The notes: generated by a model from the sequence alone, not told the origin. DNA of 64,000 bases from an uncultured Planctomycetales bacterium (GCA_964592485.1 CAZQEY010000003.1:12218-76217); one strand, 5' to 3'; counted from the first letter of the stretch, positions 31,752-63,707 are shown. Program-made: numbers and translations.

Positions 31752-31830
31752 ATATTTCGTTTAGTCGGTTTTGTCCGTTTAACAGAAATAACGGAATTAA
31801 CGGACCTACCGGAAATAATGAAATAGACAA

Positions 31831-39885: not shown

Positions 39886-40740
39886 ATGGCTATAGTGGAA
39901 GGAAAGCTTAAAATTATTATTTTAGTTCTAGTGGTATTGTTAGCAACAAGTCTTTTTCTTATCTTCAGCATCCAGAGTTCAAAGTCAGCGTTATTGCGAG
40001 AATATAACTATACCAGACAAAAGCTAACTCAGGCAAATAAGGAGCTTACAAACAAACTGAGTAGTATACTGGCAGAGAATAGCAGCCTCCAGGATAGATT
40101 AAGGGTTATTCAAGAGGATTTGGAACGCGCATCTGCCGAGAGAAGCCAGGTCCAGACCAGGTTTGAATTAATAAATAAAGAGAGAGCAGAGTTGCTGGAG
40201 AAATTAAAGTTGTATGCGCAATTGCAAAAAGACTTGGAACTTTTTAAAAATGAGAATAGAGCATTGAAAGAGCAGATTGATGTGCTGGAAAAAAACAAGT
40301 TTAAATTAAAATCCGACCTGAATGGGCTTAGGCGGGATAATGAAATCCTGAAACAAAAGATTGAGGAGGCACAACGTAGTTTAGAGGAAAAAACTCTTAT
40401 GGCCGGATATGGCAAGGAGCAGGAGGTTGATCTAACGCAGGAGTCTGAGTTGTGGTCTGTAGATTTGCCTCCCATAGTAATCTCACCACAACTCTTAGCG
40501 GATATTGATTTACCCTCTTCACTGGAGGGTGGGATTATTAATGTGAATAGGGAATACAATTTTGTAGTAATTGATTTAGGCCAGGGTATGGGTGTCAGAG
40601 AAGGTATGGTTTTTGAGGTTTTCCGGAAAGGTAAGTTCTTAGGTAAAGTTGAGGTTATTCAACTGCGTGAGAAGATTGCTGCTTGCGATATAATCCAGGC
40701 TAATATACCTTTTAGAGTAGGCGATATTGTAAGATATTGA
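39886..40740 (+). CDS. Membrane-anchored coiled-coil protein with C-terminal small beta-barrel-like domain, function unknown
   Basis: N-terminal TM helix (IIILVLVVLLATSLFLIF), ~150 aa heptad-rich Q/E/K/L segment, C-terminal FVVIDLGQGMGVREGMVFEVFRKGKFLGKVEVI. Confidence 0.45.
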   Translation: MAIVEGKLKIIILVLVVLLATSLFLIFSIQSSKSALLREYNYTRQKLTQANKELTNKLSSILAENSSLQDRLRVIQEDLERASAERSQVQTRFELINKERAELLEKLKLYAQLQKDLELFKNENRALKEQIDVLEKNKFKLKSDLNGLRRDNEILKQKIEEAQRSLEEKTLMAGYGKEQEVDLTQESELWSVDLPPIVISPQLLADIDLPSSLEGGIINVNREYNFVVIDLGQGMGVREGMVFEVFRKGKFLGKVEVIQLREKIAACDIIQANIPFRVGDIVRY

Positions 40741-49856: not shown

Positions 49857-49885
49857 TTGACAAGCGCTTTTTTATTTGCTATTCT
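49857..49885 (+). promoter_or_regulatory. Promoter TTGACA-17-TATTCT of rex
   Basis: Read directly; spacer 17. Confidence 0.5.
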
Positions 49886-49903
49886 TTGTGAAAAATAGCA
49901 CAA
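49886..49903 (+). promoter_or_regulatory. Rex operator-like box TTGTGAAAAATAGCACAA overlapping transcription start of rex
   Basis: Matches TTGTGAA-N4-TTCACAA consensus in 12/14 half-site positions; immediately downstream of -10. Confidence 0.5.
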
Positions 49904-49924
49904 AGTCTGTGAATATTGTTACAA

Positions 49925-50572
49925 ATGAATAACAAAAAAGTACCCGAAGGGACAATCTCGCGCCTGTTCATTTATCTGAGAGAACTCTCAAGCTTAACAA
50001 AGGTAAATATCCATACAGTATCATCCGCGGAATTAGGTGAGAGGACTAATCTAAGCGACGCGCAGGTAAGGAAAGACCTGGGTTATTTCGGTCAATTCGG
50101 CACAAGCGGAGCAGGCTACGACACCAGAGAACTTAAGGCTGCGCTAGAGAAGATACTCGGTAAAAACAAAGCATGGAATGTGGCCGTGATTGGAGTAGGG
50201 CATCTGGGTTCTGCGCTGGTTACCTATCCGGGATTTAAGAAGCATGGTTTGGATATAGTCGCGGGATTTGATTCTGATATCAGAAAGATAGGTAAGCAGG
50301 TGGGGGACGTAGTTATTCAATCGATAGATGAACTATCCAAGACGATTAAAGATAAAAAGATAGCCATTGGCGTTATCACTGTTCCTGCCGAATATGCCCA
50401 GGAAGTGGCGGATAAATTAATTAAGGCAGGAGTGGAATGTATCCTGAATTTTGCTCCCACTGCATTGATTGTGCCAGAGAATATTAAGGTAAAGGACGTG
50501 GATCTTTCCCGGGAACTGGAGACGCTTTCTTACTTTTTGGTTAATCCCCTTAGAAAAAAAGCGTTAGCTTAG
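49925..50572 (+). CDS. rex: Redox-sensing transcriptional repressor Rex
   Basis: N-terminal winged helix (ISRLFIYLRELSSL), NADH-binding Rossmann NVAVIGVGHLGSAL, size ~215 aa. Confidence 0.8.
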   Translation: MNNKKVPEGTISRLFIYLRELSSLTKVNIHTVSSAELGERTNLSDAQVRKDLGYFGQFGTSGAGYDTRELKAALEKILGKNKAWNVAVIGVGHLGSALVTYPGFKKHGLDIVAGFDSDIRKIGKQVGDVVIQSIDELSKTIKDKKIAIGVITVPAEYAQEVADKLIKAGVECILNFAPTALIVPENIKVKDVDLSRELETLSYFLVNPLRKKALA

Positions 50573-50655: not shown

Positions 50656-51771
50656 ATGTCAGAAATCTACTATTCATCAGCAGCACAATGGGAGGGTTTC
50701 TTAATCGAGTTGAGGCAGTCTTTCCGCGTTTATCTGCCCCGAGCAAAAGACGACGATTATCTCTATGAAGAATACAACCCCCCACACCAAAATTATCGGT
50801 ATGGGGGTAAAGACTCAGGGTTTTTCAGTTTTAATTCCTACCGACCGGTTCAACCAATAAAATCCTTTCTATTCTATTCTAAAGAAAAGGTTGCCCAGGG
50901 TTTTGTCAAATCCTCATTGCCAGAGCCTATCCCCACGGTAGTAGTGGGGTTAAAGAACTGCGATTTGCATTCTTTGAAGGTGCAGGATTATGTGTTTACC
51001 CCGCACCTTCTCCAAAGTAGCGCAGGATTAGGGCAAGAAGGTGCGGGGTTTAAGGAAGGCATCGAGGACGACCCGTTATATAAACAAAAGAGAGAAAACA
51101 CAATTCTTATTTCCGGCGACTGCACTGGTTTTAAAGAGGTCTGCTTCTGTCTTGCCCTTGAGGTCTTACCGCATCCAGTAGAGGGATTTGATTTGAATCT
51201 TTCTCCTTTAACCGATGGATTCTTGGTTGAGGTTGGCTCTAAGCGCGGCAAGGAGTTGATTGAGAAATATCAGAAATATTTTATCAAGGCGAAGGAATCA
51301 CAGATTAGTGCCAGAGATTCCAAACGACAGAATATAATTAATGAATTAACCACCCGCCTTAGTGAAAAAAACTTGCCCAAAAAAGAGATATTACAGAAAA
51401 TTGTCAAACAGGGTTATAATGCCAGTACCTGGCAGGATTTTTGTCTTAACTGTGTAGAGTGCGGCGCCTGTAATTTTGTCTGTTGCACTTGTCATTGTTT
51501 TCTCTTAACTGATACCCAGGATAAAGATAGATATCCACGCTTGCGCATCTGGGATTCTTGCCAATACGCGAATTTTGCCCGGGTTGCCGGAGGGGCGAAT
51601 CCCTTAAAGAGGAGACAGCAACGCCTGAGGAATCGCTTTTTAAAGAAGTTTGATTTCTTTGTTGATAATCTGGGGATGCCAGCTTGTGAGGGATGCGGCA
51701 GGTGCATTGAGGCTTGCCCAGCAAAGATTGATATCAGGGAGGTCCTAAAGGATTTAGCAAAAAATGCTTAA
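50656..51771 (+). CDS. Fe-S subunit of HydB/AsrA type (sulfhydrogenase beta / anaerobic sulfite reductase subunit A-like), 371 aa; carries an apparent in-frame REP-like insertion at 50995-51054
   Basis: C-terminal CxxCxxCxxxC clusters (CLNCVECGACNFVCCTCHC; CEGCGRCIEACP); followed by HydG/AsrB-like partner. Confidence 0.6.
   Translation: MSEIYYSSAAQWEGFLIELRQSFRVYLPRAKDDDYLYEEYNPPHQNYRYGGKDSGFFSFNSYRPVQPIKSFLFYSKEKVAQGFVKSSLPEPIPTVVVGLKNCDLHSLKVQDYVFTPHLLQSSAGLGQEGAGFKEGIEDDPLYKQKRENTILISGDCTGFKEVCFCLALEVLPHPVEGFDLNLSPLTDGFLVEVGSKRGKELIEKYQKYFIKAKESQISARDSKRQNIINELTTRLSEKNLPKKEILQKIVKQGYNASTWQDFCLNCVECGACNFVCCTCHCFLLTDTQDKDRYPRLRIWDSCQYANFARVAGGANPLKRRQQRLRNRFLKKFDFFVDNLGMPACEGCGRCIEACPAKIDIREVLKDLAKNA
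50995..51054 (+). repeat. REP-like element copy 3 (TTTACCCCGCACCTTCTCCAAAGTAGCGCAGGATTAGGGCAAGAAGGTGCGGGGTTTAAGG) located inside CDS 50656-51771
   Basis: Perfect 13-bp arms CCCCGCACCTTCT / AGAAGGTGCGGGG; interior nearly identical to intergenic copy 1. Confidence 0.6.
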
Positions 51772-52573
51772 TATATATCAGCCTTTGCCAATACTAGTTG
51801 AGGAGATAATTGAAGAAACCCCTACGATAAAGACCTTTGTCTTGCGTCCCGAAGAGGATTTTAGTTTCAATACCGGACAGTTCGTAGAATTAGGCTTAGC
51901 CGGCTTAGGTGAGGCTCCGTTTACTCCCTCATCTGACCCAAATATAAAAGAGAGATTAGAGATAACCATTATGAATGTTGGCAGCTTGACCTTGCAGCTG
52001 CATTCTTTGAACAAAAATACTCGCTTAGGTATTCGCGGGCCTTTTGGCAAGGGGTATCCCTTGGAAGAATTTAAGGGCAGGGAGATTGTTATTGTTGGCG
52101 GTGGGGTAGGGTTGGCGCCTTTGCGCTCATTATTGTTGAGTCTGTTTTCAGAACTTGGCCAATACAAAAAGGTATTATTAAGGTATGGCGCGCGCACGCC
52201 CAAGGATATGCTCTACCGCAGCCTTCTGGGTAAATGGGCTAAAAAAATTGATGTGGTAACTACTGTAGATGCAGCTGAAAAGGGATATAAGGGCAACGTC
52301 GGTCTGGTAACCACAATATTAAAGGATTTTCCTGTTGATGTTAAACAAGCGGTTGCGGTTGTCTGCGGGCCACCAATAATGATGAAATTTACCACTTTAA
52401 AACTTCTTGATTTAGGGTTTAGTTCATCAAATATATATCTTTCTATGGAGAAGAATATGTCCTGCGGCTTAGGAAAATGCGGTCATTGCCGGATTGGTAG
52501 ATACTACGTGTGCAAGGATGGTCCGGTATTTACCTATGCTCAATTGCAGGATATACCGGATATTTGGGATTGA
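51764..52573 (+). CDS. FAD/NAD(P)H-binding 2Fe-2S oxidoreductase subunit (HydG / AsrB / PyrK family)
   Basis: Ferredoxin-reductase-type fold (RPEEDFSFNTGQFVEL; GGGVGLAPL) plus C-terminal CGLGKCGHCRIGRYYVCKDGPVF 2Fe-2S motif. Confidence 0.7.
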   Translation: MLNIYQPLPILVEEIIEETPTIKTFVLRPEEDFSFNTGQFVELGLAGLGEAPFTPSSDPNIKERLEITIMNVGSLTLQLHSLNKNTRLGIRGPFGKGYPLEEFKGREIVIVGGGVGLAPLRSLLLSLFSELGQYKKVLLRYGARTPKDMLYRSLLGKWAKKIDVVTTVDAAEKGYKGNVGLVTTILKDFPVDVKQAVAVVCGPPIMMKFTTLKLLDLGFSSSNIYLSMEKNMSCGLGKCGHCRIGRYYVCKDGPVFTYAQLQDIPDIWD

Positions 52574-52578
52574 TTCAT

Positions 52579-53070
52579 ATGAAGAGACTATTTGTTGATT
52601 TAGAAGTCTGTAACAAATGTCCTGAATGCGTGGTAAAGTGTAGTTACTTTTATCATCCCCAGAATAACGGTATCGCCAATTTACGCGAGTATGCTACCTT
52701 TGCCCTTTATTGCCGGCAGTGCGAGGAGGCTCCTTGCGTTAATGCCTGTTATCATGAGGCATTGGAAAAACAAGTAGATGGGACTCTCAAGCGTTATAAG
52801 ATGCGCTGCACCAGTTGTAAATCCTGTAGTATTGCCTGTCCGTTTGGCACAATATTTCCTGATTTTATCCCTTATCTGGACTCAAGATGCGATTATTGTG
52901 TAGGCGTAACAAAAGAGTTACCCGAATGTATTCTCACCTGTCCCTACAAGGCAGTGGAAATAAAGGAGATTAAGGAAAACCCCGAGGCAGACATCTATTT
53001 TGTGGGTAAGAACCTGGCTGTGCATTCGCGTAAGTGGGTCAAGGAAGAGGTTAGTCAAAAGAAAAAATGA
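52579..53070 (+). CDS. 4Fe-4S dicluster electron-transfer protein (HycB/HydN-like)
   Basis: Multiple Cys-rich ferredoxin motifs (CNKCPECVVKC; CRQCEEAPCVNAC; CTSCKSCSIACP; CDYCVG...CILTCP). Confidence 0.6.
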   Translation: MKRLFVDLEVCNKCPECVVKCSYFYHPQNNGIANLREYATFALYCRQCEEAPCVNACYHEALEKQVDGTLKRYKMRCTSCKSCSIACPFGTIFPDFIPYLDSRCDYCVGVTKELPECILTCPYKAVEIKEIKENPEADIYFVGKNLAVHSRKWVKEEVSQKKK

Positions 53071-53071
53071 C

Positions 53072-53172
53072 CCCGCACCTTCTTAATATTTACAATTCAT
53101 TTTTAATAAAGGTGTAGGGTTAAAAGATATATAGATAATAAAATTAAGAATAAAAGAGAAGGTGCGGGGTGA
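53072..53172 (+). repeat. REP-like element copy 4 (arms ACCCCGCACCTTCTT / AAGAAGGTGCGGGGT separated by ~70 nt AT-rich)
   Basis: Read directly; right arm overlaps SD/GTG start of nuoH-like gene. Confidence 0.55.
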
Positions 53173-54077
53173 TATTATTTAACTACTTAATCTTTCCCGG
53201 ATTTTTATTCAGTGCAATCATTGGTTTGATTGCCGGATGGGTTGACCGTAAGGTCACAGCACGGATTCAATGGCGGGTTGGTCCGCCCTGGTATCAGAAC
53301 TTCGTCGATTTCTTAAAACTTCTGGGCAAAGAAACAATCCTGCCGCGAAGTAGTAAATTTACATTCTTACTTGTCCCTCTGCTGGGATTAATCTCAGTTA
53401 CGCTGGTTGCCACTATTGTGGGAAGACTGTTAATGAATCCTGCCGAATCCTTTTTAGGGGATTTGATAGTGGTGTTATATCTGTTGATAATACCGGCGAT
53501 TGCCTTAATCCTGGGGGGCAGCGCTTCCGGTAATCCCCTGGCTTCTACTGGCGTATCCAGGGAGATGAAGTTGGTTCTGGCTTATGAGCTCCCCTTTATT
53601 CTGGCGGTGATTACTGTAATGATAAAAGCAGGAAACACAATCAGATTGGGCGAGATTCTTGCTTATCAGATAGGTAATGGCGCGATGTTGGGGTCGGTCT
53701 CAGGATGGCTGGCCTTTATTGTTGCAATATTATGTATGCAGGCAAAACTGGGATTGGTTCCCTTTGATGTTTCTGAAGCTGAACAGGAGATTATGTCCGG
53801 AGTACTTATTGAGTATTCAGGATTTACTCTGGCAATATTTAAACTGATGAAATCAATACTTCTGTATGTTATGCCTTTATTTTTAATCAGCCTGTTCTGG
53901 GCAGCAAATATAGGAGTCCTTTCCTTGGTTGGTAAATATGTTGCCTTACTGGTCATCATTATCTTGATTAAGAATACCAGTCCCCGCTTAAGGATTGACC
54001 AAGCATTTAAGTTTTTCTGGGGACCGATTACAGTCCTCGCAGTTATAGCAGTAATTTCAGCCCTGCTCGGGCTGTAA
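53169..54077 (+). CDS. Membrane subunit of group 4 [NiFe] hydrogenase / complex I NuoH family (MbhM/HycD/EchB-like)
   Basis: 8 TM helices; GWVDRKVTARIQWRVGPP and GNPLASTGVSREMKLVLAYELPF match NuoH signatures; GTG start. Confidence 0.75.
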   Translation: MILFNYLIFPGFLFSAIIGLIAGWVDRKVTARIQWRVGPPWYQNFVDFLKLLGKETILPRSSKFTFLLVPLLGLISVTLVATIVGRLLMNPAESFLGDLIVVLYLLIIPAIALILGGSASGNPLASTGVSREMKLVLAYELPFILAVITVMIKAGNTIRLGEILAYQIGNGAMLGSVSGWLAFIVAILCMQAKLGLVPFDVSEAEQEIMSGVLIEYSGFTLAIFKLMKSILLYVMPLFLISLFWAANIGVLSLVGKYVALLVIIILIKNTSPRLRIDQAFKFFWGPITVLAVIAVISALLGL

Positions 54078-54100
54078 TAGTTGACAGTTGTCAGAAAAAT

Positions 54101-54529
54101 ATGAACTTAAAACTAAAGGCACTAACTAAGTCTCTGTGGGTATTTCACTTATGCATTGGGGGGTCCTGCAATAATTGCGATATTGAGATTCTGGATTTAT
54201 TAACCCCTCGATATGATGTGGAGAGATTTGGGTTAATGCTTGTAGGTAGTATTCGCCATGCAGATGTGCTCTTAATCACTGGCTCATTGTCCAGAAAGGC
54301 AGCACCAAGGGCAAAGAGGCTTTATGAACAGATGCCCAAGCCAGGGGTAGTAGTTGCGGTTGGCTCCTGCGCTTTGGGTCGGGGGATATTTAAAGATGGC
54401 TATAATACACCTTGTCCCTTAGATGAGTTAATTCCTGTGGACCTATATATACCCGGCTGTCCTCCCAAGCCTGAGGCAATGATTAACGGGATAGTAAAGT
54501 TAATTAAAAAAGTCAAAGGCGAAAAATAA
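54101..54529 (+). CDS. Hydrogenase small subunit, NuoB family (MbhJ/EchC-like)
   Basis: CIGGSCNNCDIE ... GSCA ... PGCPPKPE (4 Cys of proximal 4Fe-4S). Confidence 0.85.
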   Translation: MNLKLKALTKSLWVFHLCIGGSCNNCDIEILDLLTPRYDVERFGLMLVGSIRHADVLLITGSLSRKAAPRAKRLYEQMPKPGVVVAVGSCALGRGIFKDGYNTPCPLDELIPVDLYIPGCPPKPEAMINGIVKLIKKVKGEK

Positions 54530-54963
54530 TGTCTATACTGGATGAGATCAAGCAGAGATTGAAGGATAAAATAAGCGATTGGTATGAGCATAATCAGCGC
54601 AGGATATATTTCAGCGCGGATAAGAAGGATATCAGGCAGGTAGCCAGCGTTCTGTTCAAAGACTTGGGGTTAAGGTATGTCATCGCCAGTGGCATAGATA
54701 CCCCTAAAGGTTTTGAGATATTATATCATTTCAGTTTTGATAAAACCGGTCAAATAATATCTGTGCGCGTGCTTATTGAGGACAAGCAGAATCCAGAGAT
54801 TGATTCCTTAGCAGTTATATCTCCTGCCTTTGAATGGATTGAGCGGGAGATGTGGGAGATGCTGGGGATTAAATTTAGCGGCCATCCCAATCTGAAACGC
54901 TTGTTATTGGCTGAGGACTGGCCGGAGGGAGATTATCCATTGAGGTGTAAGCGTGAGCCATAA
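54529..54963 (+). CDS. NuoC-family subunit (MbhK-like, 30 kDa subunit homolog)
   Basis: Size 144 aa, position between NuoB-like and NuoD-like genes, ERExWEMxGIxF motif. Confidence 0.7.
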   Translation: MSILDEIKQRLKDKISDWYEHNQRRIYFSADKKDIRQVASVLFKDLGLRYVIASGIDTPKGFEILYHFSFDKTGQIISVRVLIEDKQNPEIDSLAVISPAFEWIEREMWEMLGIKFSGHPNLKRLLLAEDWPEGDYPLRCKREP

Positions 54964-56137
54964 GGTTGTAATTCCCATAGGTCCGTATCATCCCCTTCAA
55001 GAAGAGCCGGAGTTCTTCCAGCTGTTTGTAGAAGGGGAAAAGGTGGTTGATATTGATATTACTATTGGTTATAACCACCGGGGAATCGAGAAAATATGCG
55101 AGTCAAAGCATTTTGACCAGGTTCCCTTTGTAGTGGAGCGCATCTGTGGAATCTGCTCAACCTCTCATCCCTTTGCCTGTGTTAATGCTATAGAGGACTT
55201 AGCAAAGATTAAGGTGCCAGAGAGGGCACTTTATATCCGCACGATTATTGCTGAGATGGAAAGGATACACAGTCATCTTTTATGGCTTGGTTTAGCCGGA
55301 CACTTTATTGGTTACAATACTGTGTGGATGTGGGCTTGGAGGTATCGCGAACCATTGCTTGATTGCTTTGAGATGATTTCAGGTAATAGAAATCATTATG
55401 CAATGATGAAGGCAGGAGGGGTGAGGAGGGATATTCAGAATGAACATATACCCAAGCTAAAAAAGATGCTGGATGAGATGAATCGGGCTCTGGATATGTT
55501 CAAGGGAGCGGTAATGGATGACCCGGTGATTCATTCGCGCCTAAAAGGAATTGGTATTTTAACTCACAAACAGGCAATTGACTGGTCGGTAGTCGGACCA
55601 ACTGCGCGAGCCTCAGGAGTGAATATTGATGTGCGTCGTGACGACCCCTATGGTGCATACGATAAAGTTGACTGGAATGTAATTGTCCTGAAAGAAGGAG
55701 ATGTTTTTGCCAAGACAGTGGTGCGCATATTGGAGATGTATGAGTCAATCCGGATTATTCGTCAGTGTCTGGATAGGATGCCCAAAGGCGAGATTGATGC
55801 TAATGTAAAGGACATACCGCCTGGGGAAGGGATTGGTCGTGCTGAGGCACCGCGGGGAGAAGTGTTTCACTATGTCAGAAGCGATGGCACAAACCGTCCG
55901 ATAAGGTACAAGGTACGTGCCCCCAGTTATATGAACGTTGCCTCTAATAAGATTGCTGCTGTAGGGGCAACGATTTCTGATGCCACAATCACCCTTGCGG
56001 CGGTTGATCCCTGTTATTGTTGCACAGAAAGGGTAGCGGTAATACAAAAGCCTTCTAATAAAAAGATATTAAACGGTTGGGATTTGATTAAGCTTTCTCA
56101 GGAGAAGACCAGGAGGTTGCGGGGAGATAATGGATAA
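54953..56137 (+). CDS. Group 4 [NiFe]-hydrogenase large (catalytic) subunit, NuoD family (MbhL/EchE-like)
   Basis: N-terminal L1 motif RICGICSTSH and C-terminal L2 motif DPCYCCTER (Ni-Fe ligand cysteine pairs); GTG start with GAGGTG SD. Confidence 0.85.
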   Translation: MSHKVVIPIGPYHPLQEEPEFFQLFVEGEKVVDIDITIGYNHRGIEKICESKHFDQVPFVVERICGICSTSHPFACVNAIEDLAKIKVPERALYIRTIIAEMERIHSHLLWLGLAGHFIGYNTVWMWAWRYREPLLDCFEMISGNRNHYAMMKAGGVRRDIQNEHIPKLKKMLDEMNRALDMFKGAVMDDPVIHSRLKGIGILTHKQAIDWSVVGPTARASGVNIDVRRDDPYGAYDKVDWNVIVLKEGDVFAKTVVRILEMYESIRIIRQCLDRMPKGEIDANVKDIPPGEGIGRAEAPRGEVFHYVRSDGTNRPIRYKVRAPSYMNVASNKIAAVGATISDATITLAAVDPCYCCTERVAVIQKPSNKKILNGWDLIKLSQEKTRRLRGDNG

Positions 56138-56747
56138 GCTCGTTTCCATAAGAGAGCAGATAAACCAGATGGCAGAGCTTGCCCACTCAATGCTGGTCAA
56201 TACATTTGAGGGTTTTATAAAGCATGATTTGGATATATTGGGCGGAGTAATCCAGCAGGAGCATAAGCTTAATGATATGGAGAGGTCGTTGAGCTTTGCT
56301 TTGGTAGAGGTTTCCAAGGAAAAATCCAAGGCAGCCGACAAAAGATATATTAGCCTTCTGGCAGAGATAGTCGCTGATTTAGAAGAGATCGGCGATTACG
56401 TCAAGGATATGATTGAGAGGATTGAAATAAAGATAAAAGAGAAATTATTGTTCAGCGAAGAGGCGCTTTCGGAATATAGGCACCTGTATGATGTTGTCCA
56501 GACCGCTTTATCCGATGCCCTGAAATCATTAAAAATGAACGATAAGAACTTTTCCAGAAGGCTGCTGGGCGATGAACAGCATATTGAACGCCTGTTGACC
56601 AGATACAGGGACGCACATACAAAAAGACTTATTGCCGGGGTTTGCGACCCGCGCACAGGGAATATGTTCTTGAATATTTTAGATTTTACTACTCAGGTCT
56701 TTCATCACACAAAAAGCATTGCTGATAATATCCTGGATTTACAATGA
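56130..56747 (+). CDS. PhoU-like domain protein embedded in hydrogenase operon
   Basis: Two-repeat helical bundle with EEIGDYVKDMIERIE resembling PhoU LERIGDHAxNIAE motif; 205 aa. Confidence 0.4.
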   Translation: MDKLVSIREQINQMAELAHSMLVNTFEGFIKHDLDILGGVIQQEHKLNDMERSLSFALVEVSKEKSKAADKRYISLLAEIVADLEEIGDYVKDMIERIEIKIKEKLLFSEEALSEYRHLYDVVQTALSDALKSLKMNDKNFSRRLLGDEQHIERLLTRYRDAHTKRLIAGVCDPRTGNMFLNILDFTTQVFHHTKSIADNILDLQ

Positions 56748-58423
56748 GTGCAAATTTATCTTCACTATTTAAGCTTGATTATCTAAACAGCTTCGTTGTT
56801 CTGGCAATATTTGTTTTCTCTGTTTTGGTTATAATTTATTCTCTAAGATTTATGAGGGGGAAGTCTGGTCTGTTTCAATATTATCTTTGGATAATTTTAA
56901 CTGCGCTTGCCTCAATAGGTACGGTATTAGCGAATAATCTAATCCTGCTTTTGGTCTTCTGGGGTTTTCTTGGTCTTAGCTTATACTTACTTATCAATAT
57001 GGGTGATAAAGATAGCAATCAGGTGGCCAAGAAGACCTTTATTATTATCGGCGGCTCAGATTGTTTAATGCTTCTGGGGATTGCAATTATCTATCATTTA
57101 ACCGGTACATTTCAGATGGATAAGGTTCATCTGGCGGTTAGTGGCTCAGGGTTGACAGTATTGGCTTTTTTATGCTTAGCCATAGCCTGCTTTGCCAAGG
57201 CAGGGGCAATGCCGTTTCATTCCTGGGTTCCTGATTGCGCTGAGTCAGCACCCCTTCCAGTAGTAGCATTCCTACCCGCCTCTTTAGATAAACTTTTAGG
57301 AATCTATCTATTGGCGCGCGTCTGTTTAAATCTATTCGTGATGAATCAGGCAATGAATATATTACTGATGTTGATTGGTGCCTTTACTATTGTGGCAGCA
57401 GTAATGATGGCTTTGGTGCAGCATAATCTTAAAAGATTATTGGGGTATCACGCTGTATCTCAGGTGGGCTATATGGTTTTGGGCATTGGTACAGGTATAC
57501 CTATTGGCATTGCCGGCGGGATATTTCATATGCTCAACAACACTATATATAAATCTTGTTTATTTTTAAGCGGCGGTAATGTTGAGAGTAAGACAAATGC
57601 ATCTGAACTTAACCAACTTGGCGGCTTAGCCAAGATAATGCCGGTTACTTATCTATCCTGTTTGATTGCCAGTCTTTCTATATCAGGAGTTCCTCCATTT
57701 AATGGTTTTGTTTCCAAATGGATGGTTTATCAAGGGTTGATTTCTAAACTACAGGTTACAAGTTACGGGTTAAAAATTACAAGTATTTTATGTCTTGTGG
57801 CAGCAATGATTGGTTCAGCCCTGACCTTAGCCAGCTTTATGAAGTTAATTCATGCTACATTCCTTGGTCAGCGCAAAAATACAGTGGTATCAGAACGTCG
57901 CAGCGAAGTTTCTTGGACAATGTGGCTTCCCTGTCTGATATTGGCAGGCATCTGTGTGCTATTCGGCGTCTTTGCTTACCAGATTCCCTTAAGGCATTTC
58001 ATTCTTCCCTCCCTAATCCCTAACTACTATCTACAACCTACTGAATTTTTAGGCTTCTGGTCTCCTGGTTTAGCCACCATGTTGATAATTGTCGGACTAA
58101 TATTGGGTCTAATTATATTTAAATTAAGTAAGTTAAAATTGTCAATTCGTGAGGATGCACCCTTTATTGGCGGCGAGACAGCAGTATTGGAGCAAAGTAG
58201 GGTTTCCGGAACAGAGTTTTACAATACAGTAAAAGAAATAAATATCCTGAGCAAAATCTATAAGCTTGCTGAAGGCAAATTCTTTGATATATATGACCAA
58301 GGCCAAAGAATGGTCTTTGGGCTGACAGGTATTTTACGTAATCTGCATAATGGAGTCCTGCCCACATATATGGTCTGGTGTCTTCTGGGAATGATGGTGA
58401 TGTTTTTTCTAATAAGCAGATAA
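56744..58423 (+). CDS. Proton/sodium-translocating antiporter-like subunit, NuoL/MrpA/MbhH family
   Basis: 559 aa, ~16 TM; FHMLNNTIYKSCLFLSGG, conserved antiporter motifs. Confidence 0.8.
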   Translation: MSANLSSLFKLDYLNSFVVLAIFVFSVLVIIYSLRFMRGKSGLFQYYLWIILTALASIGTVLANNLILLLVFWGFLGLSLYLLINMGDKDSNQVAKKTFIIIGGSDCLMLLGIAIIYHLTGTFQMDKVHLAVSGSGLTVLAFLCLAIACFAKAGAMPFHSWVPDCAESAPLPVVAFLPASLDKLLGIYLLARVCLNLFVMNQAMNILLMLIGAFTIVAAVMMALVQHNLKRLLGYHAVSQVGYMVLGIGTGIPIGIAGGIFHMLNNTIYKSCLFLSGGNVESKTNASELNQLGGLAKIMPVTYLSCLIASLSISGVPPFNGFVSKWMVYQGLISKLQVTSYGLKITSILCLVAAMIGSALTLASFMKLIHATFLGQRKNTVVSERRSEVSWTMWLPCLILAGICVLFGVFAYQIPLRHFILPSLIPNYYLQPTEFLGFWSPGLATMLIIVGLILGLIIFKLSKLKLSIREDAPFIGGETAVLEQSRVSGTEFYNTVKEINILSKIYKLAEGKFFDIYDQGQRMVFGLTGILRNLHNGVLPTYMVWCLLGMMVMFFLISR

Positions 58424-58489
58424 CTTACGGAGCTCTGAAAGAGCGACGTAAGTTATAGCCCCTAGATATACTCAGGGCGTCTGCGAATT

Positions 58490-58555
58490 AGACCCCGCAC
58501 CTTTCTACTGCGTAGAGACACTTCGTAGCAAAAAGGTGCGGGGTAAGTTCGACCG
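58490..58555 (+). repeat. REP-like element copy 5 (ACCCCGCACCTTTCT...AAAAAGGTGCGGGGTAA) plus adjacent AAACTTACG...CGTAAGTTT hairpin
   Basis: Read directly in 177-nt gap inside the mbh/mrp operon. Confidence 0.55.
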
Positions 58556-58600
58556 ACAAACTTACGTTCACTTAGTTCCGTAAGTTTGGGTCTCACTTAG

Positions 58601-59122
58601 ATGATAGAACTGCATTTATTGTTATTATTTATGATTGTTGCTGCGATAATTGCCGTTGAGGTTAAGGATTTGATATCCAGTGTCGTGGCAGTGGGAGCAG
58701 TTGGTCTGGGGCTTTCCTTGGCATTTCTAATCTTGAAGGCACCTGACCTAGCAATCACCCAGTTGGTAGTAGAGATACTCTGCCTGATTATTCTTATCCG
58801 TGCCACCATAAAAAGGGATATACCTTTGATAAGGGATGGGCGCTGGCATTTTAACACAATTTCTACATTAGTGTTTATTGCTGTATTTTTAAGTCTTGCG
58901 TATATTGCCTTGAAGGATTTACCAGTATTTGGTCAGCCTCTGCTTAGGGTGGCAAGAAATTATCTAAAAGACGGCCTAGCTAAAACCGGCGCTACAAATC
59001 TTGTCTCATCAGTAATCTTAGATTTCCGCGCCTATGATACCTTGGGTGAGGCAACGGTATTATTCACTGCGGTAATGGGCGTCTTGGTAGTAATGCGCAA
59101 AATAGGAAGGAAAAAGGAATAG
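58601..59122 (+). CDS. Mrp antiporter subunit B-like, N-terminal part (DUF4040-like)
   Basis: 173 aa, 4-5 TM, typical position and composition. Confidence 0.6.
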   Translation: MIELHLLLLFMIVAAIIAVEVKDLISSVVAVGAVGLGLSLAFLILKAPDLAITQLVVEILCLIILIRATIKRDIPLIRDGRWHFNTISTLVFIAVFLSLAYIALKDLPVFGQPLLRVARNYLKDGLAKTGATNLVSSVILDFRAYDTLGEATVLFTAVMGVLVVMRKIGRKKE

Positions 59123-59566
59123 ATGAAGGGTAAGCAATCCGGGATGACATTAATTGTTAAGACAATCACGCGACTGACTGTAGGATTAATATTACTCTAT
59201 GGAATCTACATTGTCTTACACGGACATCTTTCTCCTGGCGGAGGATTCCCTGGTGGCGTAATTATTGCCTTATCCTTTATCCATCTGATGCTTGCCTTTG
59301 GCAAGGATACTGCTTTGCAGAGATTGAACCAGGTACGCGCCTCATTTTTTGAGAGCCTGGGGGCAATAATGTTTTTATCAATCGCTATTCTCGGTTTCAC
59401 GGGAGGGTATTTTTTCTGGAATTTCTTAATCAAGGGCGAACCCTTTAATCTCTTCAGTGCCGGAACAATACCCTTATATAATATTGCCATATGCTTTAAG
59501 GTAGGAGCAGGGTTATTCCTTATCTTTGTGGCTTTAGTGGTTTTAAATAATCAGGAAGAGAAATGA
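59123..59566 (+). CDS. Mrp antiporter subunit B-like (MnhB domain)
   Basis: HGHLSPGGGFPGGVI signature of MnhB. Confidence 0.7.
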   Translation: MKGKQSGMTLIVKTITRLTVGLILLYGIYIVLHGHLSPGGGFPGGVIIALSFIHLMLAFGKDTALQRLNQVRASFFESLGAIMFLSIAILGFTGGYFFWNFLIKGEPFNLFSAGTIPLYNIAICFKVGAGLFLIFVALVVLNNQEEK

Positions 59567-59616
59567 TGCTTCAACTTTGCTCAGCATCATGGTGAGCGAG
59601 TGAAGCGAGTCGAACT

Positions 59617-59955
59617 ATGAGTATATATTTTCTGTGTTTAGTACTTTTCTGCATCGGCCTTTACTGCATATTAAGAAAGAGAAACCTGATTAAGATTATC
59701 ATTGGTTTAGGTATTATCGAGTATGCGGTAAATCTATTTTTTATCTTACTCGGTTACCAAATGCATGGTCGTGCACCGATATTATCTAAGAGTGAGGAAG
59801 TCCTAAATATGGTTGATCCCTTGGTCCAGGCTCTGGTGCTTACTGCTATTGTCATTGGTCTGGCAACCACAGCTTTAATTGTCTCTATTGCCATAAGAAT
59901 CTATGATAAATACGGGACTTTTGATATTACCAAGATTAGGAAGCTTAAAGGATAA
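59617..59955 (+). CDS. Mrp subunit C / NuoK-like (MbhG-like)
   Basis: 112 aa, 3 TM, NuoK-like pattern. Confidence 0.65.
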   Translation: MSIYFLCLVLFCIGLYCILRKRNLIKIIIGLGIIEYAVNLFFILLGYQMHGRAPILSKSEEVLNMVDPLVQALVLTAIVIGLATTALIVSIAIRIYDKYGTFDITKIRKLKG

Positions 59956-60024
59956 GTGTTAAGGTATTGGGGGTGTTAAGGTGTTGGAGGTGCGCCTCTG
60001 TCCTTAATACCTTAAAACCTAAAA

Positions 60025-61515
60025 ATGTTACCTTTATTTATAATCATTCCCTTAGCAGCGGCATTTATCATTTCGCTGATTGGCAGGCTGTACCGGCGTG
60101 CAGGAGATATCCTTGTTAATTTAGCGAGCCTAGCACTCTTAGTATTATCTTTTCTTGCCCTCCTAACCCTAAACTCCCAACCCTCAGCTGTATTGGTCTA
60201 CAAAGTAGGTAGCTGGATTCCCCCTATCGGAATCTGTATGGTTTTAGATGGCCTTACCGCATTTATGTTAGTGACTCTGAATCTTGTCTCTTTTCTTGTA
60301 ACTATTTATTCCGTAAGTTATATGAATAAATATACCGCCAAATATAGATTCTATACCTTGTTTATGCTGATGCTTGCCGGTATGAACGGCGTAATTATTA
60401 CCGGCGATATGTTTAATCTGTTTGTTTTTCTGGAGATTTCTGCCATTGCCAGTTATGCTCTGGTTGCCTTTGGCACAGAAGCCGAAGAATTAGAAGCCTC
60501 GTTTAAATATGCAATCATGGGTTCAGTTGCCTCCTGCTTTATTCTTTTAGGCATTGCCCTTCTATATAGTTACACCTCATCCTTAAACATGGCAGATATT
60601 GCCTCGGTTTTAGCAACCAAGAGGCCTTCTAATATCATTACCTTTATCAGCGTTTTATTTTTAATGGGCTTTGGCTTAAAGGCAGCGCTGGTGCCTTTTC
60701 ACGCCTGGCTCCCTGATGCGCATCCCTCTGCGCCCGCACCGATTTCAGCAATGCTCTCAGGAGTACTTATAAAGGTATTAGGCATCTATGCGCTGAGCAG
60801 GGTCTTCTTTAATGTATTAGGAGTTTCTTCCACGCTGCTTTTTATTTTGATAATCTTGGGTATTATTTCTATGAGCGTAGGCGCTTTCTTGGCAATTGGG
60901 CAGAGGGACATTAAGAGAATGCTTGCTTATTCAAGCATCAGTCAGATTGGTTATGTCATTTTTGCTGTTGGTATCGGAACACCCTTAGCAATGTTGGGAG
61001 GATTATTCCATTTGTTCAATCACGCTATATTTAAGTCTCTGCTATTCTTGAATTCAGGAGCAGTGGAGTATTCTACCCATACGAGGGATTTACAGCAGAT
61101 GGGTGGATTGAATAGACGCCTGCCAGTTACCGGCAACACCAGCCTCATTGGTTCAATGTCAATATCCGGCATTCCCCCGCTTAGCGGATTCTGGAGTAAA
61201 TTAATAATCATTATTGCTGCAGTTCAGGCAAGATATATCGGCACTGCGGTTATTGCCGTATTAATAAGTGTATTAACCCTGGCTTACTATCTGAAACTGC
61301 AAAGGTATGCCTTCTTTGGTGAATTGAATAACAAGTGGGAGAGGATAAAAGAGGTACCACTTTTCATGAAGCTATCGATGATTATCTTATCAGTCTTGTG
61401 TATAATTGCGGGACTGGTTTTAATTCCTTCTCTGCAGGGATTTATCAATCAGGCAGTAGATGTTTTATTAAGCGGAAGAGATTATGCTGGTATTGTTTTG
61501 GGAGCAGTGCAATGA
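60025..61515 (+). CDS. Mrp subunit D / NuoN-M-like antiporter subunit
   Basis: 496 aa, 14 TM, FHAWLPDAHPSAPAPISA conserved antiporter motif. Confidence 0.8.
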   Translation: MLPLFIIIPLAAAFIISLIGRLYRRAGDILVNLASLALLVLSFLALLTLNSQPSAVLVYKVGSWIPPIGICMVLDGLTAFMLVTLNLVSFLVTIYSVSYMNKYTAKYRFYTLFMLMLAGMNGVIITGDMFNLFVFLEISAIASYALVAFGTEAEELEASFKYAIMGSVASCFILLGIALLYSYTSSLNMADIASVLATKRPSNIITFISVLFLMGFGLKAALVPFHAWLPDAHPSAPAPISAMLSGVLIKVLGIYALSRVFFNVLGVSSTLLFILIILGIISMSVGAFLAIGQRDIKRMLAYSSISQIGYVIFAVGIGTPLAMLGGLFHLFNHAIFKSLLFLNSGAVEYSTHTRDLQQMGGLNRRLPVTGNTSLIGSMSISGIPPLSGFWSKLIIIIAAVQARYIGTAVIAVLISVLTLAYYLKLQRYAFFGELNNKWERIKEVPLFMKLSMIILSVLCIIAGLVLIPSLQGFINQAVDVLLSGRDYAGIVLGAVQ

Positions 61516-62009
61516 ATAAAAGTAGGATAATTTTGTTCTTACTTGGTCTGTTAATCTGGTTAGGTTTATGTTGGCCTGTTGACTGGCAGCATCTGGTGAT
61601 AGGTATTTTTGTAGCTGGATTTGTTTCATTTATGACCGGAGATTTGTTTGTAAAAAGGCCGCATGTATTTAAGCACGCCAGCCGCTATCTCTGGTTTATT
61701 CTGTACCTGCCCTTTTTCATCTGGGAGTGTTTTAAGGCAAACATTGATGTAGCCTATAGAGTCATCCACCCAAATCGGCCTATTAATCCGGGGATTGTTA
61801 AAGTGAAAACTTCTCTTAAGTCTGATGCTGCGCTTACATTTCTGGCTAATTCAATTACTTTAACACCCGGCACATTAAGTGTTGATATAGATGAAGAGGC
61901 AGGATTCTTATATATTCACTGGATTAATGTAGAGGATAAGGATATAGACAAGGCAAGCAAACTTATTGTACAGAGATTTGAGCCAATACTGAGGAGAATC
62001 TTTGAGTGA
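61512..62009 (+). CDS. Mrp subunit E-like
   Basis: ATGA overlap with upstream stop; 165 aa with 2 N-terminal TM helices; typical mrpE position. Confidence 0.6.
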   Translation: MNKSRIILFLLGLLIWLGLCWPVDWQHLVIGIFVAGFVSFMTGDLFVKRPHVFKHASRYLWFILYLPFFIWECFKANIDVAYRVIHPNRPINPGIVKVKTSLKSDAALTFLANSITLTPGTLSVDIDEEAGFLYIHWINVEDKDIDKASKLIVQRFEPILRRIFE

Positions 62010-62016
62010 TTTTGTT

Positions 62017-62376
62017 ATGAGACAGATACGCTGGATACTCGGACTTATAGTTGTTATTGCTATTCTATGGATAGTTATGTTATATCCTCTTACTTCTCTC
62101 TTAGAATGGCAGTCCCCTTTTTTAGGCAGGTGCTTTAATATTCTTATGCTTTGTGGCCTGTTTTGCCTCTGGCGTATTTTAAGGGGGCCTACCGCGGCAG
62201 ACCGGATTGTCGCTATTGATATTTTGGGTATTTTGATTTTAGGCTTTTGTGCAATATTAGGCATCCCTACAGGCAGAGAATGGTATATTGATATTGGTAT
62301 TGCCTGGGCACTGCAGAGTTTCATCTCCACCTTAGCCTTGGCAAAATATCTGGAGGGTAGAAACTTCGATGAATGA
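62017..62376 (+). CDS. Mrp subunit F-like (alternative TTG start at 62002)
   Basis: Small 3-TM protein between mrpE-like and mrpG-like. Confidence 0.55.
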   Translation: MRQIRWILGLIVVIAILWIVMLYPLTSLLEWQSPFLGRCFNILMLCGLFCLWRILRGPTAADRIVAIDILGILILGFCAILGIPTGREWYIDIGIAWALQSFISTLALAKYLEGRNFDE

Positions 62377-62695
62377 GTTATTTGCATATATCTTTATAGC
62401 CATCGGCTTGAGTTTCGATTTCTTTGGCTGTCTGGGCTTAATTAGATTACCCGATGTGTATAATCGACTGCAGGCAGCAACTAAATGCGTTACTCTGGGG
62501 ACCTGTAGTATTCTGTTTGGTTTGCTTCTATTTAAGGGATTTTCTGCTGCAGGTATAAAGGCAATTCTTTGTATAATGTTTATTATCTTAACCTCACCAG
62601 TTGCAGCCCATGCGCTGGCCCGCGGCGCACACAAATCGGGTGTTAAGCTTTGGGAAAACAGTGTGTGCGACAAATATGAGGAAGACAATAAATGA
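62369..62695 (+). CDS. Mrp subunit G-like
   Basis: MNELFAYIFIAIGLSFDFFGCLGLIRLPDVYNRLQAATKCVTLGT strongly resembles MnhG N-terminus; SD GGAGGGTAG. Confidence 0.75.
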   Translation: MNELFAYIFIAIGLSFDFFGCLGLIRLPDVYNRLQAATKCVTLGTCSILFGLLLFKGFSAAGIKAILCIMFIILTSPVAAHALARGAHKSGVKLWENSVCDKYEEDNK

Positions 62696-63327
62696 GGTAT
62701 CCAAAATTAAGAGAACTGAAAGAGGCGATTAGGGCATTCATCAAAGGCCCCTATACTACCAAATTCCCACGTGAGCCCCACGTTCCTTTTGAGGCATTCC
62801 GGGGAAAACCCGAATTTCACAAGGAAGATTGTATTGGTTGTGGAGCATGCGTGCAGGTCTGCCCTAGCGGCGCATTGAGCTTTAAGGATACAGGGGATAA
62901 AAGGATTTTGCAGATACGTTGGGATATTTGCATATTCTGTGGGCAATGTCAGGCAAATTGCCCCACTGAAAAAGGGATAGTCCTTTCTAAAGAATTTGAC
63001 CTTGCCACAACTGAGAAGCGAGAGGAGTTAAGGCAGGAGATTGACAAAGAATTGGTGTTCTGCCAATGCTGTGGTGAGATAATTGCTCCTTATGACCAGA
63101 TACTCTGGGTAGCAAAAAAATTAGGTCCATTGACCTACTCTAATCCCTCCCTGATGCTCTTTTATCTTAAGAGCCAGAAACTTTCTTCTGAGGAATCAGC
63201 CGTCTCGCCTTTGGCGGGGGGTACCGCCGGAGGTGACAGGGCCAAGCCAGAGGAGGAATTTTTACGTGCTGACCGAATAAAGATTCTCTGCCCTCGTTGT
63301 AGACGCGAGGCAGTGATTAAGTCATAA
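62692..63327 (+). CDS. NuoI-family 2x[4Fe-4S] ferredoxin subunit of hydrogenase (MbhN/EchF-like)
   Basis: CIGCGACVQVCP and CIFCGQCQANCP. Confidence 0.8.
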   Translation: MRYPKLRELKEAIRAFIKGPYTTKFPREPHVPFEAFRGKPEFHKEDCIGCGACVQVCPSGALSFKDTGDKRILQIRWDICIFCGQCQANCPTEKGIVLSKEFDLATTEKREELRQEIDKELVFCQCCGEIIAPYDQILWVAKKLGPLTYSNPSLMLFYLKSQKLSSEESAVSPLAGGTAGGDRAKPEEEFLRADRIKILCPRCRREAVIKS

Positions 63328-63359: not shown

Positions 63360-63707
63360 ATGAGCGGCAGACGAATCATCCTTTGTTTTCTGCTTATTTT
63401 TTCTTTTCTTATTGGTTGTAGTAGAAAACAAGAGAGTCTCGAACAAGATTCAGAATCTTCATCTGTTGAGCTCACTCTACCTCAAATACCAAAGCTCGCC
63501 GGACCATATAAACCAACAAACAAGGATATCCAGATTGCTTTGCAGAATGCTGGATTCTATAAAGGTGATATTGATGGCAATATCGGATTTTTGACCAGAA
63601 AGGCAATTCGAGAATTTCAGGCAGAAAACAATTTAGTTGTTGACGGCAAGGTTGGACCAAAGACTTGGTCAGTATTGAGTAAATACCTGTTGGACTCAAA
63701 GGAGTAG
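63360..63707 (+). CDS. Lipoprotein with peptidoglycan-binding domain (PG_binding_1)
   Basis: Lipobox LIGCS; GDIDGNIGFLTRKAIREFQAENNLVVDGKVGPKTWSVL matches PG-binding repeat; extended -10 TGGTATAAT at ~63344-63352. Confidence 0.7.
   Translation: MSGRRIILCFLLIFSFLIGCSRKQESLEQDSESSSVELTLPQIPKLAGPYKPTNKDIQIALQNAGFYKGDIDGNIGFLTRKAIREFQAENNLVVDGKVGPKTWSVLSKYLLDSKE

Follow-up and report, generated by a model that had tools for sequence, protein, structure and literature searches.

We analysed a stretch of 64,000 nucleotides (nt; hereafter the window) filed under an uncultured Planctomycetales bacterium (GCA_964592485.1 CAZQEY010000003.1:12218-76217), focusing on the hydrogenase genes at positions 50656-63327. 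Judging from its domains, gene order and signature residues, this locus is very probably a 16-gene hun operon (hunA to hunP) of an Omnitrophota bacterium, with the layout rex-hunABCDEFG-phoU-hunHIJKLMNOP. The best overall explanation of its gene content is, in our opinion, a single Hun membrane complex that would couple NAD(P)(H) to H+/H2 and to ion movement, a reading that we favor on sequence comparisons with reasonable but limited confidence. The locus is an ordinary member of a named and genomically well-documented family: it is real and coherent, and it is not new. Our additions to the description of the family are modest, namely a link to the redox regulator Rex, a PhoU-like accessory gene and a palindrome inserted in frame into hunA.

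The hun genes were named by Glass et al. (2021; bioRxiv 10.1101/536078) for a 16-gene operon that runs in the order AsrA-like, AsrB-like, Fe-S protein, NuoH, NuoB, NuoC, NuoD, eight further genes and, last, a NuoI-like gene. In their description HunAB resemble AsrAB, HunC is an Fe-S protein, HunEFGP make up the hydrogenase, and HunH to HunO are Mrp-like; HunG carries a CGIC...CYCC signature and is assigned to HydDB group 4g, though it is distant from other 4g sequences. The carriers they listed are Atribacteria, Firmicutes, Omnitrophica, Elusimicrobia, Bacteroidetes and Kosmotoga, and their model has ferredoxin as the electron donor. We identify the present locus as hun because its domain content and gene order equal those of these 16 genes and its HunG has the CGIC...CYCC signature. 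It also shares with the published operons, which were already known in Omnitrophica, the input module of AsrA/AsrB-like and CooF/HycB-like proteins. It differs from them in having an extra PhoU-domain gene after hunG, rex at its head and a palindrome inserted three times, and in lacking the molybdopterin gene present in some hun operons. Neither Rex nor PhoU is mentioned in the text of the Hun paper (bioRxiv 10.1101/536078).

Positions are numbered on the whole window, and families were assigned to open reading frames (ORFs) by Pfam and NCBIfam profile searches. The interval 50656-63327 holds 17 ORFs, all on the plus strand and all intact, whose predicted families were confirmed. Together with rex, they are:

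49925-50572, +: rex, redox-sensing (NADH/NAD+) transcriptional repressor (NCBIfam NF003995, 2.7e-79, above cutoff; Pfam CoA_binding and Put_DNA-bind_N)
50656-51771, +: hunA, Fe-S protein, homologue of sulfhydrogenase I beta, AsrA and ShyB (Pfam Fer4_22, 2.7e-28)
51764-52573, +: hunB, FNR-type FAD/NAD(P)-binding protein with 2Fe-2S, related to sulfhydrogenase I gamma, AsrB, HydG, ShyC and PyrK (Pfam NAD_binding_1, FAD_binding_6, DHODB_Fe-S_bind)
52579-53070, +: hunC, HycB/HydN/CooF-like polyferredoxin (Pfam Fer4_11), with four [4Fe-4S] cysteine motifs in its translation
53169-54077, +: hunD, NuoH/MbhM-like membrane anchor (Pfam NADHdh, 1e-58)
54101-54529, +: hunE, NuoB/MbhJ-like small subunit (Pfam Oxidored_q6, 5.5e-30)
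54529-54963, +: hunF, NuoC/MbhK-like (Pfam Complex1_30kDa, 1.1e-26)
54953-56137, +: hunG, NuoD-like [NiFe] large subunit (Pfam Complex1_49kDa and NiFeSe_Hases)
56130-56747, +: PhoU-domain gene (Pfam PhoU, 6.5e-18)
56744-58423, +: hunH, antiporter-like, MrpA/NuoL core, the N-terminal two thirds of MrpA models (Pfam Proton_antipo_M, 4e-57)
58601-59122, +: hunI, MbhD- plus MbhE-like, equal to the C-terminal DUF4040 part of MrpA (Pfam MbhD, MbhE; NCBIfam MrpA-model positions ~603-790)
59123-59566, +: hunJ, complete MrpB/MnhB-like (Pfam MnhB, 1.9e-26; NCBIfam)
59617-59955, +: hunK, MrpC/NuoK-like (Pfam Oxidored_q2, 2.1e-27; NCBIfam)
60025-61515, +: hunL, MrpD-like, second antiporter-like subunit (Pfam Proton_antipo_M, 2.9e-70; NCBIfam MrpD, 1.5e-120)
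61512-62009, +: hunM, MrpE-like (Pfam MNHE, 7e-45; NCBIfam)
62002-62376, +: hunN, MrpF-like, start at TTG 62002 or ATG 62017 (Pfam MrpF_PhaF, 8.9e-17)
62369-62695, +: hunO, MrpG-like (Pfam PhaG_MnhG_YufB, 4.3e-25; NCBIfam above cutoff)
62692-63327, +: hunP, HycF/NuoI-like, 2x[4Fe-4S] (Pfam Fer4 families; NCBIfam FHL iron-sulfur subunit)

The start of hunC is most likely ATG 52579 rather than GTG 52510, and that of hunM is probably ATG 61512. In the translation of hunG, the L1 motif reads RICGICSTSH and the L2 motif DPCYCCTER, followed by a C-terminal extension of 34 residues; both [NiFe] cysteine pairs (CxxC) are kept. DPCYCCTER is unchanged in all 200 HunG homologues compared (120 protein matches and 80 loci), and the C-terminal extension is seen on every HunG protein compared. 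The NCBIfam matches of hunA to ShyB, HydB and AsrA are each below cutoff, and the AsrA and AsrB models themselves match HunA and HunB (TIGR02910, 4e-31, and TIGR02911, 2.5e-67) below their equivalog cutoffs. Neither a siroheme subunit (AsrC) nor any other sulfur-reductase subunit is encoded in the operon. HunP carries a C-terminal extension of ~90 residues (~120-211) with CxCC and CPRC, outside its two-cluster NuoI/HycF core; these cysteines may point to a further metal site or to a zinc ribbon.

An earlier note on this DNA, made from its sequence alone, had recognized the NuoB/C/D-like catalytic subunits with both large-subunit motifs, the NuoH- and NuoI-like subunits (Pfam NADHdh and Fer4 families), and the AsrA/HydB-like, HydG/AsrB/PyrK-like and HycB-like genes directly upstream; profile searches and translation bear out all of these, with the last three in the same operon. 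It was also right to see a full Mrp set, but the gene that is split is MrpA, divided between hunH and hunI, and not MrpB, which hunJ encodes complete. Its classification of the enzyme as an Mbh-type hydrogenase has to give way to Hun, given the two antiporter-like genes (56744-58423 and 60025-61515), the different gene order and the presence of hunABC.

Related clusters have been described under several names. Matheus Carnevali et al. (2019; PMC6349859) noted an asrA/asrB/cooF-like putative oxidoreductase module on a related Mrp-linked hydrogenase, that of the Saganbacteria RX5A cluster, which was closest to that of Omnitrophica, and Méheust et al. (2020) used the name "Mbh-Mrp-oxidoreductase type." In Atribacteria, the hydrogenase was reported to be co-transcribed with the adjoining oxidoreductase (Bird et al. 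2019; PMC6469976). The enzymes of Omnitrophota and Auribacterota are given as group 4g, Mrp-linked and ferredoxin-dependent by Williams et al. (2021, 2022). Our literature search returned no later characterization of Hun in Atribacterota isolates and no paper on the structure of sulfhydrogenase I, and the Mesotoga/Kosmotoga paper that it found covers Mbx, not Hun.

The nearest relatives of the large subunit, at 80%-89% identity, are all from metagenome-assembled genomes (MAGs) of Candidatus Omnitrophota. A scan of one genome per species yielded relatives in at least 564 species, and we surveyed the best 80 loci of that scan (66%-83% identity; L001 and so on below), onto which the window proteins were mapped by tblastn. 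Most of these loci are labeled Omnitrophota; the other labels are Clostridia, Elusimicrobiota/Endomicrobia, Nitrospirota, FCPU426, Chitinispirillaceae, Auribacterota (Tritonobacter) and Planctomycetota. One of them (L047), with 74% large-subunit identity to the window, is a MAG from Ocean Drilling Program (ODP) 1244, the site of the data set of Glass et al.

Wherever the contig reaches far enough, the order hunA-B-C-NuoH-B-C-D-(PhoU)-MrpA-MbhDE-MrpB-C-D-E-F-G-NuoI is kept. hunA was found in 66 of the 80 loci, hunB in 70 and hunC in 74, those without them being cut by contig ends, and in all loci of sufficient reach (66/66) the three genes are colinear with the hydrogenase and Mrp genes. This linkage in relatives was a check suggested in the earlier note, which had thought the input module unusual for such an enzyme; the module turns out to be the hallmark of a described subgroup that routinely carries it. 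Neighboring genes are tightly spaced in relatives, with medians between -8 and +6 nt and a median of 2 nt for hunC-hunD. Given the invariant order and tight spacing, hunABC are a fixed part of this hydrogenase type rather than a peculiarity of one genome, and they are probably translationally coupled to the hydrogenase genes.

Some loci depart from this plan in their membrane arm. Five of them (L028, L034, L042, L043 and L044) have a short hun operon, an Ech-sized version of the family, with hunABC, NuoH/B/C/D, PhoU, one antiporter-like gene and a NuoI-like gene, and no MrpB to MrpG. Eleven others have an extra MrpD-like gene ahead of the MrpA-like gene (L001, L012, L016, L020, L023, L024, L032, L041, L061, L066 and L071). 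Taken together, the two kinds of locus indicate a membrane arm with one to three antiporter-like subunits in the family. A large hunB-hunC gap in L054 was considered as a possible FdhH/molybdopterin gene and rejected, as the only Pfam match there is a pilin-type N-methylation motif, along with two ORFs left unassigned.

The comparison with solved structures places each part of the predicted electron path. HunB is by far closest to the gamma subunit of Pyrococcus furiosus sulfhydrogenase I (9nez_C, 1.8e-45), with PyrK, NfnA and NqrF far behind, and the best match of HunA is the beta subunit of the same enzyme (9nez_B, 5e-32). HunC matches best HycB of the Escherichia coli formate hydrogenlyase (FHL; 7z0s_B, 1.4e-11), and HunP is closer to HycF (7z0s_F, 8.4e-21) than to MbhN (3.4e-14). 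For HunG the best match is MbhL (6cfw_L, 2.5e-88), followed by HycE, NuoD and MbsL in that order. These matches of HunA, HunB, HunC and HunP describe a peripheral arm of the FHL type, with a sulfhydrogenase beta-gamma pair in the slot of FdhH. Among 71 HunB sequences, the motifs of an FNR-type nucleotide site (GGGVGxAPLR and CGPPxMM), those on the flavin side (GEAPFT and RGPxGxGYP) and the 2Fe-2S cysteines (CGxGKCGHC...C.DGPVF) are all at least 97% conserved, and the conservation of these motifs argues for a working NAD(P)H-flavin site.

Hun thus resembles several characterized enzymes, each in part. The P. furiosus membrane-bound hydrogenase (MBH; group 4d, 6cfw) has the closest large subunit, the same core of NuoB/C/D/H/I-like proteins and Mrp-derived membrane subunits, and ion-translocating H2 metabolism is presumed for both. 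However, MBH is encoded by 14 genes (mbhA-N) in another order, has one antiporter-like subunit (MbhH) and no flavoprotein module, and takes ferredoxin directly, whereas Hun has two antiporter-like genes and hunABC, and its HunP is more HycF-like than MbhN-like. With FHL-1 of E. coli (group 4a, 7z0s), Hun shares the HycB/HycF-like wire (HunC/HunP) from a detachable donor module to a NuoB/NuoD-like hydrogenase; its donor is of the sulfhydrogenase beta-gamma type instead of FdhH, with no molybdopterin gene in the operon, its NuoC and NuoD are encoded by separate genes, and a full Mrp arm stands in place of HycC/HycD. The P. furiosus sulfhydrogenase I (group 3b, 9nez) shares the NADPH/FAD/Fe-S module, HunA and HunB being akin to beta and gamma, but it is soluble, and Hun has a membrane-bound group 4 core in place of its catalytic alpha-delta pair. 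The ShyA model matches only the N-terminal ~100 residues of HunG (6e-15), which is NuoD/MbhL-like. Finally, complex I and the membrane-bound sulfane reductase (MBS) have homologous Q-module and membrane-arm subunits with two or more antiporter-like subunits; Hun has two, as do Mrp and MBS. Hun differs from both in keeping the [NiFe] cysteines, which indicates an H2 site rather than one for quinone or polysulfide. The nucleotide-oxidizing module at the tip of the peripheral arm is a likeness to complex I by analogy, since Hun uses the FNR/PyrK-type HunAB and the operon has no NuoE, NuoF or NuoG genes.

The earlier note had also considered a transcription terminator separating 50656-53070 from the hydrogenase genes. 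No intrinsic terminator is predicted in the gap between hunC and hunD (53070-53169) nor in the 83-nt gap between rex and hunA. We therefore rejected a terminator that would cut the input module off from the hydrogenase genes; the 98-nt gap consists of a hairpin that has no U tract, is absent in relatives and resembles repetitive extragenic palindromic (REP) elements. The underlying palindrome has 12-nt termini, ACCCCGCACCTT...AAGGTGCGGGGT, and variable loops, and its three complete copies in the window all lie inside the hun operon:

50998-51049: REP-like copy 1, in frame within hunA (hairpin of -29 kcal/mol predicted)
53070-53170: REP-like copy 2, filling the whole hunC-hunD gap from the hunC stop codon (hairpin of -32 kcal/mol, no U tract)
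58420-58588: three hairpins in the 177-nt hunH-hunI gap (-35.4 and -22.7 kcal/mol)
58492-58544: REP-like copy 3, within the hunH-hunI gap

Half-sites of the palindrome match seven times in the window, against 0.18 expected, with one lone half-site at 39642-39653, and one further copy of the palindrome was found in a relative (L033, 8083-8183). Overall, the REP-like hairpins have predicted energies of -29 to -35 kcal/mol and z-scores of -4.7 to -7.7; they lack U tracts and look like REP-type elements rather than terminators. Copy 1 measures 52 nt, or 54 nt with a possible TT duplication, and such an in-frame insertion is reminiscent of the Rickettsia palindromic elements. The right arm of copy 2 supplies AAGGTG, a Shine-Dalgarno-like sequence right ahead of the GTG start of hunD. 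The hunH-hunI gap, home of copy 3, is 15 nt long in the relative L081.

Upstream of rex we found the following candidate regulatory sites:

49857-49885, +: sigma-70-like promoter, TTGACA, 17-nt spacer, TATTCT with TG extension (10/12 consensus matches; a consensus match only)
49886-49903, +: Rex-operator-like site 1, TTGTGAAAAATAGCACAA, 2 mismatches (motif search)
49907-49924, +: Rex-operator-like site 2, 3 mismatches (motif search)

The transcription unit most likely begins at the promoter-like site, with rex probably the first gene of the operon, and both Rex-box-like sites fall after the -10 element and ahead of the rex start codon. We also scanned 1.17 Mb of related loci, of which 30.7 kb lie upstream of hunA or of rex-hunA, with the Rex operator consensus TTGTGAAN4TTCACAA. 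All eight perfect boxes and all 12 boxes with one mismatch are inside those 30.7 kb, spread over 20 related loci, with none elsewhere in the 1.17 Mb. They stand 19-59 nt ahead of the hunA start where no rex precedes hunA, and likewise in six of the eight loci where one does (L017, L046-L050). In L079 the box is found ahead of rex and 668 nt upstream of hunA; in L029 only sites with two or three mismatches are present, ~1.0-1.1 kb upstream and again ahead of rex. Loci with perfect or one-mismatch boxes are labeled Omnitrophota, Planctomycetota/Planctomycetia, Clostridia and Auribacterota, and the Elusimicrobiota locus L053 has a two-mismatch box only. The loci are related, so the count overstates the number of independent events, but the spread across phyla is still clear. 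This conservation of candidate operators suggests that Hun expression is tied to the NADH/NAD+ ratio via Rex.

The PhoU-like gene shares 8 nt with hunG and 4 nt with hunH, and these overlaps indicate that it belongs to the operon. A PhoU fold for its product is supported at the sequence level: the protein aligns over its full length with Pseudomonas aeruginosa PhoU (4q25, 8e-7), although its TIGR02135 score of 57 bits is below the equivalog cutoff of 130, and it is encoded not with pstSCAB/phoR but in a hun operon, in the window as in L081/L082. A mis-called or chance ORF was considered and rejected in view of the Pfam match, of 146 homologues in a database search and of a clean pattern of presence and absence. 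These homologues form a tight family, the search being word-based and reaching close relatives only; they conserve ExxGD in repeat 1 and a His, a Cys and an Asp in repeat 2, and the JGI label 'phosphate:Na+ symporter' attached to some of them derives from the shared domain. In that search, no PhoU homologue outside hun operons was seen in the two places examined (L081/L082, the contexts of one protein). The gene is present in 34 of the 80 loci: 30 have it between hunG and hunH, three (L057, L069 and L077) between hunO and hunP, and one (L054) between hunD and hunE. All five short hun variants keep it. Where it is missing, the hunG-hunH gap is 6-54 nt among the closer, mostly Omnitrophota-labeled loci, and no locus lacking PhoU has a PhoU-sized gap. 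The earlier note had correctly reported the gene between the large subunit and the mrpA-like genes and had called it unexpected; by its recurrence, the PhoU-like protein is an optional Hun accessory. Its role could, speculatively, be in metal handling or maturation of HunG, or that of a regulatory subunit.

The surroundings of one PhoU-containing hun operon, that of L081, include genes for metal transport and hydrogenase maturation. Upstream (1-5000) are an H+-pyrophosphatase, a Zip transporter and CbiM/CbiQ/ABC genes, the last belonging to a transporter family that includes nickel and cobalt importers. Downstream (17147-17626) is a HycI-type maturation endopeptidase, which fits the C-terminal extension present on all HunG.

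We suggest the following route for electrons through Hun. The flavoprotein HunB would exchange hydride with NAD(P)(H) and pass electrons to the Fe-S clusters of HunA, from where they would move first through HunC (HycB-like, four clusters), then through HunP (HycF-like, two clusters) and the NuoB-like cluster of HunE to the [NiFe] site of HunG, where H+/H2 would be turned over. The NuoH-like HunD would couple these reactions to the Mrp-type arm, made of HunH, HunL and the equivalents of MrpB, C, E, F and G, which would move H+ and/or Na+. A single complex is indicated by the invariant synteny, the tight spacing, the lack of a predicted terminator and the co-transcription reported in Atribacteria (PMC6469976). 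We infer, then, that the parts form one complex with NAD(P)H as a substrate, and likewise which way it runs and which ion it moves. The coupling to NAD(P)H proposed in the earlier note is plausible and gains strength from the conserved HunB motifs and the candidate Rex operators; that NAD(P)H is a physiological partner of Hun seems to us somewhat better than an even bet.

The thermodynamics constrain the direction in which such a complex could run. The standard potentials (E0') are -320 mV for NAD+/NADH and -414 mV for H+/H2, and from these midpoint potentials the formation of H2 from NADH costs ~+18 kJ/mol at standard conditions and is no more than marginally favorable at ~10 Pa H2. Most likely, Hun either disposes of surplus NAD(P)H as H2 at the cost of an ion gradient or works the other way round, reducing NAD(P)+ with H2 and so generating such a gradient; a third option is that it accepts reduced ferredoxin as a second donor. 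As Rex would keep the operon off until NADH/NAD+ rises, the venting role is favored.

Several observations weigh against a NAD(P)H-coupled Hun, or against our reading of this particular operon. Since NADH-driven H2 evolution is endergonic, it cannot also pump ions outward, and the Mrp arm is hard to rationalize in an enzyme that purely turns NADH into H2 unless it runs backwards. In other bacteria, hydrogenases that depend on ferredoxin are under Rex control as well, so the operators are no proof of an NADH substrate. The Rex boxes of the window have two and three mismatches, and matches with up to three mismatches are no commoner than chance across the window; the boxes carry weight by their position and by their counterparts in relatives, not by their own score. 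Copy 1 of the palindrome adds ~18 residues to HunA that are absent in 65 of 65 orthologues. No member of the Hun family has been purified or assayed, as far as the literature we searched shows, and the only explicit published model has ferredoxin as the donor (bioRxiv 10.1101/536078).

In that model, reduced ferredoxin would feed the [NiFe] site through HunABC, H+ or Na+ would be driven outward by H2 evolution in the manner of the archaeal MBH, and the NAD fold of HunB would go unused for NAD(P)H. Glass et al. (bioRxiv 10.1101/536078) put it forward, and no other route to H2 plus ion pumping is as simple energetically; the closest solved relative of the large subunit is the ferredoxin-dependent MbhL, and the polyferredoxins HunC and HunP could dock ferredoxin directly. 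However, HunB retains all FNR-type NAD(P)H and flavin motifs, strongly conserved, and its closest characterized relative is an NADPH-binding subunit. MBH takes ferredoxin without such a module, and yet hunAB are kept in every locus where they could be seen. Moreover, Salmonella Asr, the cited analogy, is NADH-linked. We consider ferredoxin as the only donor unlikely on this evidence.

Less probable still, in our view, is an enzyme with two substrates, ferredoxin at HunC/HunP and NAD(P)(H) at HunB, which would be confurcating (Fd_red + NAD(P)H -> 2 H2) or would act as an ion-pumping Fd:NAD(P)+ oxidoreductase with H2 overflow, merging the separate jobs of MBH and sulfhydrogenase I in Pyrococcus. 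Such an enzyme would explain how a NAD(P)H module can go together with an Mrp arm that pumps outward; the modules are indeed an MBH-like core plus sulfhydrogenase beta-gamma, and Bird et al. (2019; PMC6469976) allowed for electrons from "ferredoxin or NADH." The idea is nevertheless entirely inferential, and the sequence gives no sign of a bifurcating flavin site, HunB being of the simple FNR type and not of the HydB/NuoF or NfnB type. The least probable of the alternatives is that HunABC makes up a soluble enzyme of its own, for example an NAD(P)H:ferredoxin or NAD(P)H:polysulfide reductase, which is how the sulfhydrogenase beta-gamma pair used to be seen, and is merely co-transcribed with a ferredoxin-dependent Mbh-Mrp hydrogenase. 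By their NCBIfam names, sulfhydrogenase beta-gamma and AsrAB are linked to sulfur or sulfite reduction, and sulfur-compound reduction was mentioned by Bird et al. (2019; PMC6469976). This option is opposed by the invariant gene order, with start and stop codons of hunC and hunD that overlap or abut across phyla, by the likeness of HunC/HunP to HycB/HycF, the physical bridge between donor module and hydrogenase in FHL, and by the lack of AsrC or another sulfur-reductase catalytic subunit in the operon.

Returning to the NAD(P)H-coupled complex, a fuller version of it can be proposed, which we offer tentatively and hold to be possible rather than probable. Hun would be an ion-coupled, reversible NAD(P)H:H+ oxidoreductase and a second, independent way of fitting a nicotinamide-nucleotide module to the Mbh/complex-I scaffold, with the sulfhydrogenase beta-gamma pair in place of NuoEFG. 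Under the control of Rex, it would let fermenters such as Omnitrophota vent NADH as H2 by drawing on the ion gradient, or form NAD(P)H from H2 with pumping, and the PhoU-like protein would serve it as a subunit dedicated to regulation or to the handling of metal.

The rest of the window gives some context for the operon. At 32 nt past hunP is a small lipoprotein-like ORF with a PG_binding_1 domain (63360-63707, +), with a homologue at the equivalent position in ~17 related loci; it may be in the same transcription unit in Omnitrophota. At the other end, a giant ORF of 8159 residues (73-24552, +) strings together domains of enzymes and regulators that have no relation to one another: DOT1-like and other methyltransferases, HAD hydrolase, radical SAM, isochorismatase, TPR, CN hydrolase, HTH_3 and alanine dehydrogenase/PNT. 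Omnitrophota are reported to have giant genes. Between the two, a saccharolytic set (26459-35054) comprises a GH94 phosphorylase, a CBM11 protein, a sugar ABC transporter and a GH2-like protein; a LacI regulator is encoded at 40737-41771. The set is consistent with a fermentative lifestyle that needs a redox valve. A scan of the whole window with Rfam matched no family.

The hun operons of uncultured anaerobes (Omnitrophota, Atribacterota, Elusimicrobiota and others) span at least several hundred species-level genomes, and metabolic reconstructions routinely show them as ferredoxin-dependent Mbh. What Hun actually oxidizes is a worthwhile question. If Hun is coupled to NAD(P)H, models of how subsurface and anoxic-water communities produce H2, balance redox and conserve energy would need revision, and the origin of complex I's NADH module would gain an informative parallel in Hun. 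The conserved candidate Rex operators, in turn, offer a concrete regulatory link between this family and the NADH/NAD+ ratio.

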